DNA of 63,681 nt, filler included, from 8 parts of 8 records of this genome joined end to end with filler, not necessarily neighbours in it; one strand, 5' to 3'; shown: positions 5,258 through 58,072, numbered from the whole stretch's first letter. Program-made: numbers and translations. Notes: generated from the sequence alone by a model not told the origin.

Positions 5258-5357
5258 NNNNNNNNNNNNNNNNNNNNNNNNNNNNNNNNNNNNNNNNNNN
5301 NTTAATTAATTAANNNNNNNNNNNNNNNNNNNNNNNNNNNNNNNNNNNNNNNNNNNN
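5258..5357. other. Artificial contig spacer
   Basis: N44-TTAATTAATTAA-N44. Confidence 0.98.
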
Positions 5358-16341: not shown

Positions 16342-16441
16342 NNNNNNNNNNNNNNNNNNNNNNNNNNNNNNNNNNNNNNNNNNNNTTAATTAATTAANNN
16401 NNNNNNNNNNNNNNNNNNNNNNNNNNNNNNNNNNNNNNNNN
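16342..16441. other. Artificial contig spacer
   Basis: N-TTAATTAATTAA-N. Confidence 0.98.
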
Positions 16442-23556: not shown

Positions 23557-23656
23557 NNNNNNNNNNNNNNNNNNNNNNNNNNNNNNNNNNNNNNNNNNNN
23601 TTAATTAATTAANNNNNNNNNNNNNNNNNNNNNNNNNNNNNNNNNNNNNNNNNNNN
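23557..23656. other. Artificial contig spacer
   Basis: N-TTAATTAATTAA-N. Confidence 0.98.
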
Positions 23657-32876: not shown

Positions 32877-32976
32877 NNNNNNNNNNNNNNNNNNNNNNNN
32901 NNNNNNNNNNNNNNNNNNNNTTAATTAATTAANNNNNNNNNNNNNNNNNNNNNNNNNNNNNNNNNNNNNNNNNNNN
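32877..32976. other. Artificial contig spacer
   Basis: N-TTAATTAATTAA-N. Confidence 0.98.
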
Positions 32977-45571: not shown

Positions 45572-45671
45572 NNNNNNNNNNNNNNNNNNNNNNNNNNNNN
45601 NNNNNNNNNNNNNNNTTAATTAATTAANNNNNNNNNNNNNNNNNNNNNNNNNNNNNNNNNNNNNNNNNNNN
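45572..45671. other. Artificial contig spacer
   Basis: N-TTAATTAATTAA-N. Confidence 0.98.
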
Positions 45672-51044: not shown

Positions 51045-51144
51045 NNNNNNNNNNNNNNNNNNNNNNNNNNNNNNNNNNNNNNNNNNNNTTAATTAATTAA
51101 NNNNNNNNNNNNNNNNNNNNNNNNNNNNNNNNNNNNNNNNNNNN
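51045..51144. other. Artificial contig spacer
   Basis: N-TTAATTAATTAA-N. Confidence 0.98.
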
Positions 51145-51335: not shown

Positions 51336-51409
51336 GTATAATCTTCTGGAGATTGCCGACGTGCACATCGTTTCGATTTCATGTGCATGTTGGCAATCCT
51401 CTGTTAGCT
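51336..51409. repeat. attC-like hairpin site 1
   Basis: GTATAAT-N8-GATTGCCGACGTGCACAT...ATGTGCATGTTGGCAATC-N4-GTTAGCT; AAT in place of AAC. Confidence 0.7.
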
Positions 51410-51441: not shown

Positions 51442-52287
51442 CTATTTTTTTGTTGCCTTTATCTTATTACAGAATTCCATTACCTTACGATCAACTTCAT
51501 CTGGATAACTATATTCTAACTTTTCACCAATATATTTCGCAAGCTTTCTAAATAAACTAGTTACCTTGTAAAACGCTTGCCAATTTTCTTCTATTCCTCC
51601 ACTTGCATATGATTGCTCAACTTCATTCCACACTTCAGGTGATAGGAGTTTTTTATATTTTTTACCAAGTGCACCTGTTTCTATTGACCAACCATTTTTA
51701 TATCCAATATGCCAATCAACTATTTTATGTAAAAATGAATACCTCAATATATTATCTAACATATACTTCGCAAACGGCAACTCATCTCTCCATAAATACT
51801 TGGGTATGTAATATGCATCCCACCAAAATTCATGTACTAATGCATTAAATTCCTCTTCTGTTGGTTTCTTAATTATAAATTCGCTATATGTACACTCAAT
51901 GGAATCTTCTATCTTTTTATCCTTATCTACTAGTATTTTATATCCATTATCATATCGATCAGTTTGAATTTTTTCTTGTTCTGTAATCTGAAAATCAATT
52001 CTTATACCATCTTCAAATAAAATTAATCTTGTAATCCATTCATTAGAAAAAGTAGAACGAGGCTTATATGGCCATCTAACCATAACTTTTCCAAAAGTAG
52101 AAAGCCAATTGTCATCCTTAACAAAGTACTGAATGTCTGAAACATATAATTCGATATCATAATCAGACAAAAAATCAACTTTATTATCCTTCTTAACTCG
52201 TGAACTAGTTAGTATTGCAGTTCTTACAATATCATTCCCTCTTGCCCACTCCGTAAATTGTGTTAATACTTGTTCTTCACTTCTCAT
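51442..52287 (-). CDS. Aminoglycoside 6-adenylyltransferase (AadK/AadE) family protein
   Basis: MRSEEQV...SSR...DFLSDYDIELYV, LILFEDGIRIDF, EFWW...YIPKYLWRDEL, GKKYKKLL, YSYP. Confidence 0.8.
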   Translation of the reverse strand: MRSEEQVLTQFTEWARGNDIVRTAILTSSRVKKDNKVDFLSDYDIELYVSDIQYFVKDDNWLSTFGKVMVRWPYKPRSTFSNEWITRLILFEDGIRIDFQITEQEKIQTDRYDNGYKILVDKDKKIEDSIECTYSEFIIKKPTEEEFNALVHEFWWDAYYIPKYLWRDELPFAKYMLDNILRYSFLHKIVDWHIGYKNGWSIETGALGKKYKKLLSPEVWNEVEQSYASGGIEENWQAFYKVTSLFRKLAKYIGEKLEYSYPDEVDRKVMEFCNKIKATKK

Positions 52288-52322
52288 CTGTGTCCCCCCT
52301 CACAAGATATCGGTTAGTATTC

Positions 52323-53204
52323 CTACAAGCTATCTTCTAATAAACTAAGATTCGCATAAAAGAACTGGTCATCAATCTTATTTCTCCTAACACACCAGGC
52401 TAGTTCACCTAAAGCATTATGGATTCTATATATAGGCAAGGTACCCTCGATATCAGGTAACTCTTCTATTGATTTATAACCGCTAATAAAAGACTCTTTC
52501 GATTTAGGATATACGTTCCATATATGCTCTGATATCTTAATGAAATCGATTGATGCTGATCCTCCACGTGATGATTCGAAATCAACTATACCTACCACTT
52601 TTCCCTCTTTAACAAGAATATTTCCAGGCCTATAATCAAAATGTACTAGACAAGGAATTTCTGATTTGAAACTCTCGTTCATTTCTAGTTCATAGAATTT
52701 TTCTAGTTTCTCCTTTAGCCCAGTGGATATATAACCATCAATTTCCAACAACCAGTTTTTATATCTTTTTCTTATACTCTCCCACCAGTCATTTTTCTTG
52801 TCATTTAGTTCAAACTTTTCTAATTTGATTCTATGTATTGATGCTAGAGCTTTTCCTATTTCGAAACTTTGCTCTGCACAAATTGGGAGGCTCATTGGAT
52901 CACCATCTATATATGACATTAATAATGCGCCAATATTTTTATTATCCCCATACCAGACATTAAGCAAATCAGGAACTAAAGGATTGCTTGATAATAACTC
53001 TAATGCTCTAGCTTCACGATAAACTTTCTCTCTATTAAATGGGATCTTCAAAACAACTTTATCGTTGTTCATTAATTTTAGTATTCTCACAGTAGAGCTA
53101 TATGACTCAGTAACTAATTCGACTGATTTAACATCTACATTGAAAATTTCAATTGCCTTATCGATTACGTCCATGTTGTTCTCCTTCAGTTGTATGATTT
53201 CCAA
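52323..53204 (-). CDS. Aminoglycoside phosphotransferase (APH/choline kinase-like) family protein
   Basis: VVLK, HFDYRPGNIL catalytic loop, VDFE. Confidence 0.82.
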   Translation of the reverse strand: MEIIQLKENNMDVIDKAIEIFNVDVKSVELVTESYSSTVRILKLMNNDKVVLKIPFNREKVYREARALELLSSNPLVPDLLNVWYGDNKNIGALLMSYIDGDPMSLPICAEQSFEIGKALASIHRIKLEKFELNDKKNDWWESIRKRYKNWLLEIDGYISTGLKEKLEKFYELEMNESFKSEIPCLVHFDYRPGNILVKEGKVVGIVDFESSRGGSASIDFIKISEHIWNVYPKSKESFISGYKSIEELPDIEGTLPIYRIHNALGELAWCVRRNKIDDQFFYANLSLLEDSL

Positions 53205-53278: not shown

Positions 53279-53329
53279 CTATAACGTTCCGCGAATATGC
53301 GAAGTGGAATCGCATATTCTCTGTTATAG
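53279..53329. repeat. attC-like hairpin site 2
   Basis: CTATAAC-GTTCCGC-GAATATGCGA-AGTGGAA-TCGCATATTC-TCT-GTTATAG. Confidence 0.85.
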
Positions 53330-53383
53330 GCAGTTTTTTCTTGGATGTTTGGGGAAAAACGGAGCCATGGATGGCGGAGTTTT

Positions 53384-54079
53384 CTATTTTAGCTTCATTA
53401 AGCATGAATCTACCCATTTCTCATCCATTTTTTTCAATCGGTTTTTCTTTAAGTTTTCCTTTATTATCCATTTAATATGTTTTCCTTGTAGATCAAATAG
53501 TTTTTCAAAAATGGTTTTACCTTCATTTGGAATTGCAGATATTGCAACACTCCAGCCATATCCTAAGGTTTTTCTTAAAGATGTGCTTTTTTTGTCAAGC
53601 TTTTCGTCATGAGCAAATTGCTTAGATATTTGTAGTAAGATATTAAGAACTGCTATATTTGATTCTCTATTGTCCAGTAATTTCGGCTCACAAAGGCCTG
53701 CGACAACAGCTCTTTGTTCAAGTTCACTTCCTTGGACAAAACATTCCAACTTTCCTAGAATGTCAGTCATTTTGTTTTCAGCTATTTCTTGAATCGATAT
53801 TGCTACCGATTCTCTGATTCTCCAGCTTTCATGATTGGCATATTGTTTTAAGAATGAAATGACGTCCTCTAAAGAATTCCGATTTTTAATTGAATATGAT
53901 AAAACTCCGCACATACCAACAAATTCTTCGGGAGAATTCTTTACAGTAGGTGTTATGTATTCAATACATTCTTTAATTTGTTCTTCATCTGCATTTTTTG
54001 AAAATTCATACAACAATTTTAAATTTCCTCGTGGCCCAGGCAAATTCGAATTCTCAATTAAATATTTAATGTCATACAT
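53384..54079 (-). CDS. HEAT-repeat-like hypothetical protein
   Basis: SNLPGPRGNL, ESWRIRESVA, LCEPKLL, LGYGWSV, WIIKENLKKNRL. Confidence 0.7.
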   Translation of the reverse strand: MYDIKYLIENSNLPGPRGNLKLLYEFSKNADEEQIKECIEYITPTVKNSPEEFVGMCGVLSYSIKNRNSLEDVISFLKQYANHESWRIRESVAISIQEIAENKMTDILGKLECFVQGSELEQRAVVAGLCEPKLLDNRESNIAVLNILLQISKQFAHDEKLDKKSTSLRKTLGYGWSVAISAIPNEGKTIFEKLFDLQGKHIKWIIKENLKKNRLKKMDEKWVDSCLMKLK

Positions 54080-54146
54080 TTATTTTCCTTTCTTTGTGCC
54101 ATGGATGGTGCAATGATAAATATAAAATTCTCCAAGAAAAAATTGC

Positions 54147-54224
54147 CTATAACGTCACGTGAGCTTACGACGTGGACATTCTTCCGAATTTATTGTCCAT
54201 GTCGTCGTAAGTTTGCAGTTAGGT
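54147..54224. repeat. attC-like hairpin site 3
   Basis: CTATAAC-GTCACGT-GAGCTTACGACGTGGACA...TGTCCATGTCGTCGTAAGTTT-GCA-GTTAGGT. Confidence 0.85.
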
Positions 54225-54356
54225 GTGTACTGAGTGACAACTTTCGAAACGTATAGATCTATGCTTAAGCCTTCTGTATGACTCCATCCATTCGTACAGT
54301 AAATCCAATCAGTTTTATAAATGTCTAGCCGTCAAGATAATATAAACGTAATGAAC

Positions 54357-54761
54357 TTAAATTCCGGATAATCTGGACTTAATACTGGTTACAATCAAAC
54401 TCCATTCCTCAAAGGAATTACTCTCTTCCCACAACTCAAATAGCTCTGAATTATCTTTCATCACTCTATCAATAGCTTTAATTGCACTTGGCACTAGAGT
54501 AGACACTTCCAAACTCTTCACTTTGCTAATAAATCCAGTAAATTCATCATTGTTAAAATCTGAATAATTATGCTCAGTTAAAACCATATCTAGGATTGCC
54601 GCAGAAATAAGTATTTCATGAGCCTCATCAACTTCTAAATACTCACTATCAAATCTACTAAATGCCTTCATCATGTACTCTACTGGGTTTTCCTCTACAA
54701 AATCGTACATGAAATCAGATGCATTATCATTCTCGAATATTCCAACTCCCCATGTTCCCAT
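54357..54761 (-). CDS. DUF4259-like protein
   Basis: MGTWGVGIFENDNASDF start with RBS GAAAGGAAGG; C-terminal SELFELWEE. Confidence 0.8.
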   Translation of the reverse strand: MGTWGVGIFENDNASDFMYDFVEENPVEYMMKAFSRFDSEYLEVDEAHEILISAAILDMVLTEHNYSDFNNDEFTGFISKVKSLEVSTLVPSAIKAIDRVMKDNSELFELWEESNSFEEWSLIVTSIKSRLSGI

Positions 54762-54889
54762 AGTAACCTTCCTTTCAAAACAAAATAATTTTATTAATAC
54801 TATATATTCCAATGCGTTACAATCCGTTATTCGTGATCTCTTTAACTTCAATTACATTATCAACTTTATCTTAGGTCGAATGAAATATA

Positions 54890-55381
54890 TTACATTCCCT
54901 CCATCATAATTTTTATGCTATCTCTTGAAAAACCAGTAGAAGTAGATGAGAATATTCCCATGACACCTCCAGCTATACATATTAAAATGAGAATCTTGAT
55001 AGTTAATTCAGAAACATTCTGACCTCCTAGTTCTTTTAACAAAATTGATATTTCTTTTGCTCCGTTCTTTATTAAAACCCAAATTAGAATAATAATCCAA
55101 ACGGCTACTACTGATATGTGAAATAAAGCAATCCATGGATTAAAGGGGGTTGGAAAAAGATAATACAAAAAGTAAGGAATTTTACCGAATATCATCCCTA
55201 GTCCAACAGCAATCCAAGGGACATTACCTACTAGAATAATACCTTTTGAAACACGTAAACCTATTTTCAAGTGTTCTCTATCTATTATTTTTGATTTACA
55301 TAAATAGTAGAAAAATCCTCCATATATTGATGTAGCTATAATTGAAATCACCCAAAAGAATTGTTGATAAATTACTAGCAT
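54890..55381 (-). CDS. Hypothetical four-TM membrane protein
   Basis: RBS AGGAGG; four hydrophobic segments. Confidence 0.7.
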   Translation of the reverse strand: MLVIYQQFFWVISIIATSIYGGFFYYLCKSKIIDREHLKIGLRVSKGIILVGNVPWIAVGLGMIFGKIPYFLYYLFPTPFNPWIALFHISVVAVWIIILIWVLIKNGAKEISILLKELGGQNVSELTIKILILICIAGGVMGIFSSTSTGFSRDSIKIMMEGM

Positions 55382-55423
55382 TAATTAACCTCCTAAGTCA
55401 TGTTAAAGTATCCTTTTATTTTC

Positions 55424-55520
55424 TCATAACGTCTACCGAATTGCCGACGTCTATTGGCTCAAAAATTACCCGCTTACCATAACCTTCAAGTCGATAGATG
55501 TTGGCAATTCGCTGTTAGAT
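55424..55520. repeat. attC-like hairpin site 4
   Basis: TCATAAC-GTCTACC-GAATTGCCGACGTCTATTG...CGATAGATGTTGGCAATTC-GCT-GTTAGAT. Confidence 0.85.
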
Positions 55521-55586
55521 GAAATATTCGAATGATCCCATTCCAACAAGCTAAAGAGTCACGCGACACACCTCATTGCTTATTCT

Positions 55587-56165
55587 TTATTGAGCATTAA
55601 GGAACAATATCATGAGATACTCACCGGCATAGGTACCATCACCATACTTCAATGCATGCTTCTTCGTCCCATGTATTTCAAATCCCAAACTCTTATACAT
55701 GCTTAAAGCTCGATTGTTATGAGTAACAACTTCCAATTCAAGTTGCTCTACCCCATTCCCTCTACTCCACTTTATACATTCTTCCATCATCGTTCTTCCG
55801 ATACCCAATCCCCAAAAAGATTTTCTCACAGATATACCTAATGCTGCTCGATGCAAATATCTTCGTTTACTCATAACTATTCCTACAGAACAGTTAGCTA
55901 CTATCTGTCCTTCAACTTCAGCTATCAAAAGTTGACTATTGGCATCATCTGCAAGGCTTCTTATAAAAGCTTCTTCTTGTTCTGCCGTGAAATCAAATTC
56001 CCCGGGTTCACGTGCCAAAAATCTCGTCTCACAGTCTACATCTTTCATATAATTGATTAGATTCTGTGCATCGCTCACTTCTGGGATTCTTACAATTAAC
56101 TGCTTATTGTCCTTCAATTCATACTTCTCTTTATAAGCTACTGTCTTAGCTTCGTGGTTACACAT
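55587..56165 (-). CDS. GNAT-family N-acetyltransferase
   Basis: LGISVRKSFWGLGIGR, LELEV...NNRALSMYKSLGF; RBS GGAGG. Confidence 0.9.
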   Translation of the reverse strand: MCNHEAKTVAYKEKYELKDNKQLIVRIPEVSDAQNLINYMKDVDCETRFLAREPGEFDFTAEQEEAFIRSLADDANSQLLIAEVEGQIVANCSVGIVMSKRRYLHRAALGISVRKSFWGLGIGRTMMEECIKWSRGNGVEQLELEVVTHNNRALSMYKSLGFEIHGTKKHALKYGDGTYAGEYLMILFLNAQ

Positions 56166-56281
56166 AAAAAATTCCTCCATTTAATATTGACTTCTTCAAA
56201 AATAATGTCACTAATATCGCTAATGTCGCCTTCCATGTAACCACCTCCTTCAAAATCATCTATATTAAAACGCTGAAAGCA

Positions 56282-56343
56282 TCATAACAGCATTGTTCTT
56301 TGCCCCTATTACCGAATGTGAATATGTCAACTCGCTGTTAGCA
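56282..56343. repeat. Degenerate attC-like site 5
   Basis: Right end CTC-GCT-GTTAGCA intact and left TCATAAC present, but the stem pairs poorly. Confidence 0.55.
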
Positions 56344-56362
56344 GACGTATATAATGACAACA

Positions 56363-56985
56363 TTAACCATTCTTTGATTCAAATAATGGCTTTTCTTCAT
56401 CACTAAGCTTAGGATATACTACTTTAAAATAGTAATTATTAGGATACTTATAACTGAAATACGTCAATAGTAAAGTTATAGGATAACCTGTGATCCAATT
56501 AATACCATACATAACTTCAAAAGAATCTAATCTTAACATAGTTATCTTTATAAATAACTTCATAGCATAAAAGATTCCCCAAATTAATGTCAATTTCCTT
56601 AGTGCAGGTCTACATTGATCATATATATTATCATTCTCAAAGAAACTCTTGGCTAATACCGAGACTAGGTCATTCTTAGTGAAATATGAAGCCAAAAAAA
56701 TTAGTGAATATAGAGTATTACTTACTAGTGGATAAATAAAAACAGTCATCGGATTATCTGATATAAATTCTATAAAAGAACTCACAAATAAACCTATCAT
56801 TCCAAAAATATTAAGTGGTGTAAATCTTCTATTAACTTTATAGACCGAAGCATACATTAGTAAACCAATAGTAAAACTAATAACAATAGCAACTCTAAAT
56901 GTAGTGTACTTAAAAAGATTGATGAAAACCAAAGCTGGTATAAAACTAAAAATCAATTCTTGATGCTTATAAAAAAACTCTTCAT
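56363..56985 (-). CDS. Membrane protein, VC0807/DUF3159-like (one-base frameshift in A run near 56975)
   Basis: RBS AAGGGG and ATG at 56985 rejoin the ORF if one T is added; LRKLTLIWG motif, several TM helices. Confidence 0.6.
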
Positions 56986-57020
56986 TGTAATTCCCCTTCC
57001 GAAACCGAATTATATATGTC

Positions 57021-57095
57021 TGTTAACGTCCCGTGAACTTACGACGTGGCCATCCTTCCAGTTAAAACGTCCATGTCGTAAGTTCGCTGTTAGGC
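57021..57095. repeat. attC-like hairpin site 6
   Basis: TGTTAAC-GTCCCGT-GAACTTACGACGTGG...CCATGTCGTAAGTTC-GCT-GTTAGGC. Confidence 0.88.
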
Positions 57096-57197
57096 GTAGT
57101 CTCACACGGAAGCTACTATAACCTATAGAATGAGCCACTTCCTCTTATCTTCATATCCTATATATGTATTATACAAGCCTCATTACATCTACGTTTA

Positions 57198-57584
57198 CTA
57201 GTCTAAATATGGATAGTTTTTTCTAACTTCCATCTGATACTCATCCAAACTCACCATCTTGTCTTCTCTAAAACGTATTACTGAAACTCCGTCAAATGTA
57301 TACTCAACTGAATCTACTTCGCAAACAAAATTCCAGATAGATGTTGCTACTTCAGAGTCATCATCGAAATACTGATTACTTATATCCCATGAAATTACAC
57401 GATTACCTTTAGAATGCCAACCGTCAAACCACTTCTCTGCTACATCAATACCAATATACATATCGCCTGTGCATTCTTTAACTATTACATCATGATTCAA
57501 AAGGGATAAAAATAATGTCTTATCCTGAGCAATCCAAGCTCTAAAATAATCTCTCGTTATTTGAGTTGCAACTTTACGATTCAT
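57198..57584 (-). CDS. SnoaL/NTF2-like protein
   Basis: YFRAW..QD, ECTGDMY.G, WNF.C, FDGVSVIRF...EY; RBS GGAGG. Confidence 0.8.
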   Translation of the reverse strand: MNRKVATQITRDYFRAWIAQDKTLFLSLLNHDVIVKECTGDMYIGIDVAEKWFDGWHSKGNRVISWDISNQYFDDDSEVATSIWNFVCEVDSVEYTFDGVSVIRFREDKMVSLDEYQMEVRKNYPYLD

Positions 57585-57633
57585 TGTACTCCTCCAAAAA
57601 AATCATTATTGTCTTAAACCAATGTGGGATTAC

Positions 57634-57705
57634 GCCTAACGTTCCGCTGTTATGCGAAGGGCAATTTGGGTGTAGCAAAGCGGAACCATATAGTCGTTGT
57701 TATAT
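57634..57705. repeat. attC-like site 7 (partly degenerate)
   Basis: GCCTAAC-GTTCCGC-TGTTATGCGAAG...GTC-GTT-GTTATAT; left arm resembles site 2. Confidence 0.65.
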
Positions 57706-57972: not shown

Positions 57973-58072
57973 NNNNNNNNNNNNNNNNNNNNNNNNNNNN
58001 NNNNNNNNNNNNNNNNTTAATTAATTAANNNNNNNNNNNNNNNNNNNNNNNNNNNNNNNNNNNNNNNNNNNN
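57973..58072. other. Artificial contig spacer
   Basis: N-TTAATTAATTAA-N. Confidence 0.98.

Follow-up and report, generated by a model that had tools for sequence, protein, structure and literature searches.

Single-gene units on an AT-rich contig are bracketed by long inverted repeats, and we put at roughly 80% the probability that each pair belongs to a single cassette, as the outer portion of its recombination hairpin that a crossover well inside the hairpin has divided in two. The contig (the cassette contig, 6.8 kb) lies in a window of 63,681 nt, the whole stretch of DNA analysed, which consists of eight contigs joined by N44-TTAATTAATTAA-N44 linkers. All nine genes of the cassette contig are on the minus strand, and seven hairpin sites of the form AAC...GTT separate the cassettes between 51145 and 57972; the plus strand is the folding, or 'bottom', strand. 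Integrons are the textbook example of gene capture through a folded single-stranded site, and we read the clostridial system to which these sites are related as an integron variant, presumed functional, whose recombinase is not the standard integron integrase. Here, we describe the anatomy of the sites, the covariation of their arms, the bias towards folding on one strand, the limits of the cassettes, and the recombinase that neighbours related arrays, together with its domain make-up.

The first-pass annotation of the window had noticed that, for the units carrying a HEAT-repeat-like, a DUF3159 and a SnoaL-like gene, the right flank of one site is complementary to the left flank of the next. 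These three pairs were reproduced at the same coordinates, with identities of 22/23, 17/19 and 16/18 (Table 1), and those of the HEAT and DUF3159 cassettes rank among the 25 longest inverted repeats in a repeat search. When all right flanks were compared with all reverse-complemented left flanks in a 7x7 matrix, the cognate HEAT, DUF3159 and SnoaL pairs scored 20, 13 and 12, and the other 43 cells at most 8. The partner of each 19-nt arm is also its unique best complement in the whole contig (16-18 of 19 positions, against a background of at most 14). Equally long matches between shuffled flanks had been named beforehand as a possible refutation; among 20,000 shuffles of the left flank with TAAC kept, none reached any of the observed scores, the largest being 11. 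The broader statement that units are bracketed by their own repeats stands for three of the six complete units of the cassette contig and fails for the others, which run from S0 to SA, from SB to SC and from SC to SD. All three pairs have one mismatch in common, at position 11 counted from the G of GTT, where a right-flank G stands opposite a left-flank T, a wobble on the plus strand. This shared mismatch is not random.

Read on the plus strand, each window site has a stem-loop between TAAC and GTTA, with a few unpaired bases on the TAAC side and one to three on the GTTA side. A search of Rfam gave no match for them. The 3' arms of three window sites supplied a 21-letter pattern, with which relatives were sought in one genome per species. 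The pattern matched 63 stretches, 16 of which, all on one strand, are in the complete chromosome of a Vallitaleaceae metagenome-assembled genome (MAG; OY762509.1, here G001). We retrieved 200 kb around this array and scanned it for hairpins, obtaining 190 matches on one strand vs 10 on the other; 170 of the 190 have exactly five unpaired nucleotides after AAC, one before GTT and an ungapped stem (the 5/1 geometry). After filtering, the array comprises 184 sites of one family of ~70 nt, spread over ~161 kb (3449736-3610787; loci L072-L081), and in 160 of its 183 units the genes run opposite to the site strand. Such an array is very large for Bacillota, a phylum for which the accessible text of PMC9024848 reports a single complete integron. 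Sites of the same family were also found in contigs of two HGW-Firmicutes MAGs, one Fusibacter MAG and Dethiothermospora halolimnae.

The G001 array gives the rule behind the window repeats. Its 183 adjacent flank pairs have a median score of 13, vs 5 for 33,673 non-adjacent pairs. In a per-position table of 150 distinct cassette pairs, with position 1 at the G of GTT, the right flank of a site pairs with the left flank of the next one over positions 1-19. Watson-Crick pairs occupy 116-150 of the 150 cases at every position from 1 to 18 except 11, and 99 at position 19; at position 20 pairing drops to the chance level (30/150). Positions 6, 7 and 12-19 show all four types of Watson-Crick pair; positions 5, 9 and 10 are limited to three types, and the invariant positions 1-4 and 8 to a single one, with position 8 always G. 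At position 11, G on the right flank is opposite T on the left flank in 147 of the 150 pairs, and no Watson-Crick pair occurs there (0/150). The three window pairs are thus instances of a family-wide 19-bp stem, since they share the position-11 mismatch and the rule recurs in four other assemblies: in L013, L050, G006, G003 and G002, six of seven units shorter than 900 nt pair at 16 or more of 19 positions with wobbles counted, and position 11 is G·T in 11 of the 12 adjacent pairs examined outside G001.

Wobble pairs are unevenly distributed between the strands. On the strand antisense to the genes, G·T outnumbers A·C by 21 to 2 in the arms (p=6.6e-5) and by 312 to 13 in the inner stem of the G001 sites, a bias that, read from sequence, is the signature of sites folding on the bottom strand. 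In the window, the plus-strand fold is the more stable one in five of the seven sites because several stem positions are G·T pairs there; the exceptions are SB, whose two strands fold equally well, and SD, which favours the minus strand.

The limits of the cassettes follow from duplicates. Four G001 cassettes are exactly duplicated, each copy lying between different neighbours, and the identity runs from the (C)TAAC of the left site through the whole hairpin and the unit to the TAACGTTCCG of the right site. Among 452 pairs of similar G001 cassettes, the interior of the left site is the more similar one in 399 and that of the right site in 49. Since the duplicates share the whole left hairpin and diverge inside the right one, the mobile unit is a gene with the hairpin that follows it, and the crossover, as in integrons, falls within the TAAC block. 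The limits are consistent with a crossover at AA|C, at the resolution of a 10-nt block; the corresponding crossover of the HEAT cassette would fall at 54152|54153. The first-pass annotation had each unit moving as a discrete module with crossover at AAC/GTT. Movement as a module is borne out by the four duplicates, that is, by relatives and not by the window's own units. A unit running from GTT of site n to AAC of site n+1 does not stand: the cassette probably starts at the C of AAC(n) and stops after the AA of AAC(n+1), with crossover only in the block TAAC(GTTCCG). The actual mobile unit is therefore offset by one hairpin from the one first proposed, and both arms lie within one cassette either way.

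Because a crossover in the TAAC block places the two arms at opposite ends of the cassette, the full outer (R) stem exists only in the excised circle, and the R stem of a site in the array is chimeric, its left arm coming from the neighbouring cassette. In G001, the arms pair at a median of 18/19 positions in the circular form, where the cognate partner is present, vs 12/19 in the array. The prediction that the circular form would carry a much longer hairpin was checked by circularizing units in silico and folding them. The circular junction of the HEAT cassette folds with -29.2 kcal/mol, compared with -18.7 in the array and -11.5 with a non-cognate flank; the corresponding values are -14.3, -6.2 and -6.0 for the DUF3159 cassette and -29.1, -16.5 and -17.1 for the SnoaL cassette. 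The window junctions are thus more stable than the in-array sites, and gain about 8-13 kcal/mol over both these and non-cognate flanks. Over 60 G001 units, the circular junction folds with a mean of -31.1 kcal/mol; the mean is -21.7 for the site as it stands in the array, and -21.3 when a random non-cognate flank takes the partner's place.

We then turn to the enzyme. None of the 30 G001 proteins matching the IntI model TIGR02249 reaches the cut-off of 265 bits. The best match (187 bits) is a protein of 336 aa encoded 1.1 kb beyond the last site, in the same direction as the cassettes. The XerA, XerC and XerD models give it similar scores (XerA 202 bits, cut-off 220), and it aligns unbroken, end to end, with archaeal XerA (4a8e, 151 bits). 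Compared with IntI4 (2a3v), 18 of its residues stand where IntI4 has 60 chain residues, so the IntI-specific insertion is absent. It has ~60 extra N-terminal residues, and in this N-terminal region 17 of 38 recombinase homologues match Pfam HARP (PF07443); in an AlphaFold model of the G001 protein (mean pLDDT, the predicted local distance difference test score, 86.1), the N-terminus is predicted to form a beta-beta-alpha-beta-beta-alpha unit. Between the recombinase stop codon and the partner arm of the first G001 cassette are 63 bp with two direct repeats, which might be an attI-like region. Similar repeats and a YTAAC are present downstream of homologues in G024, G134 and G057; at L099:1-226, L101:1-226 and L100:2130-2200, the YTAAC is followed by two direct repeats of ~9 nt.

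Homologues of 47-65% identity have the same arrangement next to sites in three other assemblies (G002, G003 and G006), and relatives are publicly named 'tyrosine recombinase' or 'XerD' in Petrocella, Vallitalea, Fusibacter and Helicovermis. In a survey of 151 genomes of the order to which G001 belongs, nine have a recombinase match at E<=1e-60; G001 itself carries other Xer-like genes elsewhere in its chromosome. The first-pass idea that the repeats could mark a distinct recombinase substrate fits these data, in that the recombinase beside the arrays in four genomes is without the IntI insertion and the sites combine a loop of 5 nt vs 1 nt with the absence of bulged bases.

These elements can be assembled into a mechanism. 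Read antisense to the genes, a site has a 19-bp R stem that is private to the cassette save for GTTA, G8 and the position-11 G·T; next inside come the crossover triplet, probably cut at AA|C, and an asymmetric loop of 5 nt (usually GTYCC) opposite 1 nt, and innermost a conserved stem-loop of about 20 bp. The base of the stem would be 19 bp away from the crossover, against the usual 7 bp or so. Integration would leave one R arm upstream of the gene and the other downstream, beside the inner hairpin, and the full stem would form only in the excised circle, or by pairing of the arms across a looped-out cassette in single-stranded DNA. A dedicated Xer/IntI-like tyrosine recombinase, with a HARP-like N-terminus and without the IntI insertion, would read the long duplex and its wobble. 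The long stem would make the free circle the preferred and much better substrate than the chimeric array sites, and cassettes that lose arm pairing would stop moving. The outer stem would drift because there is no sequence requirement beyond GTTA, G8 and the wobble, and covary because it must stay paired. Ten base pairs, or one helical turn, separate the position-11 wobble from the cut, and the opposite strand has a mismatch at this position; together with the one-sided 5-nt loop, the wobble may take over the strand-marking role of the bulged bases of IntI sites. The IntI-specific domain contacts those bulged bases, and such strand marking would fit the absence of this domain from the recombinase.

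Several points weigh against this interpretation. No recombination, circle or junction was observed, and the sole run with this DNA, its likely source, is stored as contigs, a form that cannot reveal circles. Three of the six complete window units are unpaired, namely the two-gene units S0 to SA and SB to SC and the GNAT unit SC to SD, each with a score of 4, no extended pairing and no partner arm anywhere in the contig. Fusion of cassettes after site loss would explain the two-gene units, and SD is visibly decayed. By our own hairpin criteria, the 6.8-kb cassette contig holds seven sites and no recombinase, no recombinase gene was found in the window, and the link from this contig to the Xer-like enzyme would run through the similarity of its sites to those of other genomes. 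The covariation counts in G001 are not independent events, because cassettes may share ancestry, and in 17 comparisons of homologous G001 cassettes with differing arm sets the one-sided changes are A·C in 15 and G·T in four, contrary to the strand bias. On the side of the enzyme, the HARP match is weak for the G001 protein itself, for which Pfam gives none at E<=0.01, and the G002 copy of the recombinase has an internal stop. Finally, G012, G090 and G016 have homologues of 42-49% identity behind which no sites of the 5/1 geometry lie: their extended loci gave 6, 0 and 1 weak scan matches on the expected strand, which we judged random. The association of recombinase and sites therefore holds for closer relatives only.

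For comparison, we used the chromosome of a Geopsychrobacteraceae genome (G159), which has a true IntI (488 bits) and sites with 5/6 unpaired nucleotides and a bulged G. A generic energy-based detector performed poorly on it, and a family-specific pattern was used instead; the complementarity of cognate flanks in this array is 3-10 in 12 adjacent pairs. In the accessible text of PMC5027507, the R boxes of canonical attC sites are RYYYAAC/GTTRRRY, with 7-bp cores, and cognate ends match once the cassette is circular; extrahelical bases lie close to L'', and each arm has a spacer of five to six bases. Of the surveys of complete integrons, the accessible text of PMC4889954 reports none found in Firmicutes, and that of PMC9024848, on IntegronFinder 2.0, one in Bacillota/Firmicutes, along with clusters of attC sites lacking integron-integrases (CALINs). 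A literature search that covered few subscription journals and no supplements was negative for these arrays, for a 19-bp R stem and for any cassette-associated recombinase with a HARP domain.

Other explanations of the repeats have to be weighed against this evidence. One would be an ordinary integron array of the CALIN kind, whose repeats are the usual match of R' and R'' cores, longer by chance and with no meaning of their own. The units are indeed laid out as in an integron: they are co-oriented and carry one gene each, their hairpins are of the AAC...GTT form, and the cognate ends match after circularization. The same logic operates with 7-bp cores according to the accessible text of PMC5027507, and CALINs are reported for Firmicutes in that of PMC9024848. 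We nevertheless hold it to be quite unlikely: the length of the arms is far beyond chance in both the matrix and the shuffles, the stem is fixed at 19 bp with the wobble in 147 of 150 distinct cassettes, the cognate flanks of the true-IntI array of G159 score only 3-10, and the 5/1 loop without bulged bases and the neighbouring recombinase both fall outside the canonical pattern. Alternatively, the paired ends could be a footprint of how cassettes are created, for example by fold-back copying round a templated hairpin, left without present function on cassettes that are still young. A nearly uniform inner hairpin with private outer arms would fit the addition of a templated core to varied DNA, but copying would yield G-C or A-T at position 11, where 147 of 150 pairs have G·T. 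Constraint is indicated by the abrupt end of pairing at position 19, by the invariant G8 and by the recurrence of the rule in five assemblies, and wobbles are tolerated on one strand only; we consider this origin unlikely.

The position of the arms, in the 5' and 3' untranslated parts of each gene, would also suit a role in RNA, with the two ends of the transcript pairing to stabilize or insulate it independently of recombination. On the mRNA strand, however, position 11 becomes an A·C mismatch and the other wobbles turn into mismatches as well; wobbles favour the antisense strand (21 vs 2 in the arms, 312 vs 13 in the inner stem), on which five of the seven window sites also fold more stably, which makes a function in RNA very improbable. 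Least probable of all is that the units are small transposons with terminal inverted repeats, or modules of the Xer/dif type, even though inverted repeats do bracket single genes and the recombinase scores about equally on Xer and IntI models. Their arms differ from unit to unit and leave no shared transposase or Xer binding sequence beyond GTTAG, all sites have one orientation (190 vs 10) and are hairpins of 45-100 nt instead of a 28-bp duplex, and the duplicates carry the whole left hairpin along.

Set beside known systems, the clostridial arrays resemble integrons in having a tyrosine recombinase at one end of a co-oriented array of mostly single-gene cassettes, and an imperfect hairpin, delimited by ...TAAC and GTTA..., behind each gene (seven such sites in the window, 184 in G001). 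As in integrons, the strand antisense to the genes folds, the crossover lies in the AAC block, the ends of a cassette are complementary in the circle, and a cassette is a gene with its own downstream hairpin (co-oriented in 9/9 window genes and 160/183 G001 units). The sites within one genome are uniform, as they are in large sedentary chromosomal integrons. The 'inverted-integrase' integrons of Spirochaetes and others, such as that of Treponema denticola, have a bona fide IntI and canonical attC sites. The G001 array is like them in that recombinase and cassettes point in the same direction, with a putative attI-like region downstream of the recombinase gene.

The differences from integrons lie in both the site and the enzyme. 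The clostridial R stem has 19 bp and is private to the cassette where the accessible text of PMC5027507 gives a 7-bp consensus, and its internal loop is 5 nt vs 1 nt with a conserved GTYCC, not 5-6 nt on both arms as described there. Position 11 is a fixed G·T, and the L'' arm has no extrahelical bases. The array recombinase does not reach the IntI cut-off, and it differs from IntI in its missing insertion and its HARP-like N-terminus. The host, too, is atypical, being a member of the Bacillota, where one complete integron was found by IntegronFinder 2.0 according to the accessible text of PMC9024848. The end-to-end alignment of the G001 recombinase with XerA, and its score near the XerA model cut-off, recall Xer (XerA, XerC/D), from which the system differs in its substrate, 45-100-nt folded hairpins all in one orientation (190 vs 10) and not a 28-bp duplex, and in the extra N-terminal domain. 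Unlike the ends of transposons or miniature inverted-repeat transposable elements (MITEs), the arms differ between units beyond GTTAG.

The definition of integrons rests on an IntI-specific domain that grips bulged bases, and integrons are, as far as we know, regarded as almost absent from Gram-positive bacteria. Three things bear on that picture: some 184 sites over 161 kb in one clostridial chromosome, a neighbouring recombinase without the IntI domain, and sites with a long cassette-specific stem and a fixed wobble in place of the bulged bases. Should function be confirmed, these arrays would be a second molecular solution to the integron principle. The system would also offer a handle on why a circle would be a better substrate than a site in the array, and on how the choice of strand is enforced, since arm length, pairing and wobble can be changed separately. 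For annotation, detection that requires IntI would call none of these arrays a complete integron (0/30 G001 matches reach the cut-off), and the window cassettes include aminoglycoside-modifying gene families.

A bolder version of the proposal, which we consider possible but doubtful, is that Clostridia (Vallitaleaceae, Fusibacter and relatives) hold an independent, IntI-less integron lineage in which a HARP-domain Xer-like recombinase reads a wobble-marked private 19-bp duplex, and in which chimeric array sites keep a 200-cassette array stable. Lying at the two extremities of the cassette, the arms would act as an address: when the bottom strand is single-stranded, their pairing across the gene would loop out exactly one cassette and unite its two crossover points.

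We also looked for the window's own cassettes elsewhere. The first-pass annotation had proposed looking for the same gene and its flanks next to different neighbours; this arrangement was found for G001 cassettes. For the window's cassettes, a tblastn comparison of the nine window proteins with all fetched loci yielded just two GNAT relatives at 29-38% identity, and no counterpart of a cassette in the related arrays. A metagenome scan with the HEAT protein yielded 15 loci at 44-65% identity. None of these has convincing sites of the family, and the 13 with enough flanking sequence have no bracketing repeat above the shuffle level (at most 10, vs 20 in the window). These relatives of the HEAT gene are distant, ordinary, unbracketed genes outside arrays.

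The coordinates of the sites, arms and genes are collected in Table 1.

Table 1. Sites, R-stem arms, genes and limits in the window (positions counted from the first letter of the window)
Feature	Position	Strand	Remarks
Cassette contig	51145-57972	genes -, sites read on +	6.8 kb; limits from N runs
N runs	5258-5357, 16342-16441, 23557-23656, 32877-32976, 45572-45671, 51045-51144, 57973-58072		
Site S0	51339-51406	+	18-bp stem 51351-51368/51381-51398, GTTAG at 51403; left triplet degenerate, ATC for AAC at 51341-51343; fold energy -16.7 (+) and -12.6 (-) kcal/mol
Two-gene unit S0 to SA	51442-53204	-	streptomycin-adenylyltransferase-family gene 51442-52287 (PF04439, 3.9e-77); APH-family phosphotransferase gene 52323-53204 (PF01636, 3.3e-18)
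Site SA	53282-53326	+	TAAC, 7 nt, 10-bp stem, 3 nt, GTTA; hairpin belonging to the HEAT cassette
HEAT cassette, right arm of R stem	53323-53345	+	22/23 complementary to 54131-54153; mismatch G·T at position 11
HEAT-repeat-like gene	53384-54079	-	231 aa; weak Pfam HEAT matches (0.0024), below cut-off
HEAT cassette, left arm of R stem	54131-54153	+	ends in TAAC of SB
Site SB	54150-54221	+	5 nt/1 nt geometry; 80% identity to SE over 56 nt
Two-gene unit SB to SC	54357-55381	-	DUF4259 gene 54357-54851; membrane protein gene 54890-55381; ends unpaired
Site SC	55427-55517	+	long stem; inner sequence nearly equal to a site in an HGW-Firmicutes-7 contig (L050)
GNAT acetyltransferase gene, unit SC to SD	55587-56180	-	Pfam match; ends of unit unpaired
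Site SD	56285-56340	+	decayed hairpin (-3.3/-5.6 kcal/mol); TAAC and GTTAG retained
DUF3159 cassette, right arm of R stem	56337-56355	+	17/19 complementary to 57009-57027; mismatches at positions 5 and 11
DUF3159 membrane protein gene	56363-56956	-	PF11361, 2.3e-12
DUF3159 cassette, left arm of R stem	57009-57027	+	ends in TAAC of SE
Site SE	57024-57092	+	5/1 geometry typical of the family of the Vallitaleaceae array; blastn 73-79% to four sites there
SnoaL cassette, right arm of R stem	57089-57106	+	16/18 complementary to 57623-57640; mismatches at positions 11 and 14
SnoaL-like gene	57198-57584	-	PF12680, 4.4e-08
SnoaL cassette, left arm of R stem	57623-57640	+	ends in TAAC of SF
Site SF	57637-57702	+	SA-related; interior larger, poorly paired

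By Pfam family, the genes of the cassette contig are a streptomycin-adenylyltransferase, an APH, a weak HEAT-like protein, DUF4259, a membrane protein, GNAT, DUF3159, a SnoaL-like protein and a truncated open frame. The first complete unit brings together two aminoglycoside-modifying families, ANT(6)-like and APH-like. No site lies between its two genes, and its ends are unpaired (score 4), with no partner arm in the contig; it could be two cassettes fused after the loss of a site. The cassette contig has 33% G+C, most of the other contigs in the window have 52-60%, and all relatives of its sites are in Clostridia/Bacillota; for these reasons, it may come from an organism other than that of the rest of the bin. 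Products of the adjoining contig (45870-51042), also AT-rich, include a protein of 1004 aa that combines DUF4474 with bacterial TSP3 repeats and one of 583 aa with ankyrin repeats, besides another ankyrin fragment.

Some features of the G001 array are recorded here in their own right. One cassette of ~640-648 nt recurs more than 40 times (for example, in the units starting at 3452081, 3454034 and 3457746), and its arms are mismatched at positions 5-6 and paired only to position 16. Two unrelated cassettes, in the units starting at 3502317 and 3552322, contain the same 2.9-kb insert (98.4% identical), which is probably an insertion sequence. Eight apparent compensatory changes between homologous G001 cassettes proved to be an artefact of this insertion common to two unrelated cassettes, and were discarded. 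The first cassette beside the attI-like region (L081:827-1854) has an APH-like gene in two overlapping frames, which may be frameshifted.

Two of the three contigs with the YTAAC and direct-repeat arrangement (L099, L101 and L100) end ~230 nt past the recombinase gene, as expected if repeated sites break assemblies. Beyond G012, G090 and G016, several of the surveyed recombinase loci lie within ~230 nt of a contig end. In G012, the region downstream of a 47%-identical homologue (L108:2668-3930) has hairpins of another geometry and a co-directional TIR-like gene, and may be a diverged small array.

In the public run, an apparent joint from 54185 to 57069 was traced to a separate contig that matches two similar sites, and is not a circle junction. 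A contig of the same run spans the cassette contig with one extra base at 52293 and another at 57595, and extends 9.1 kb further to the left.

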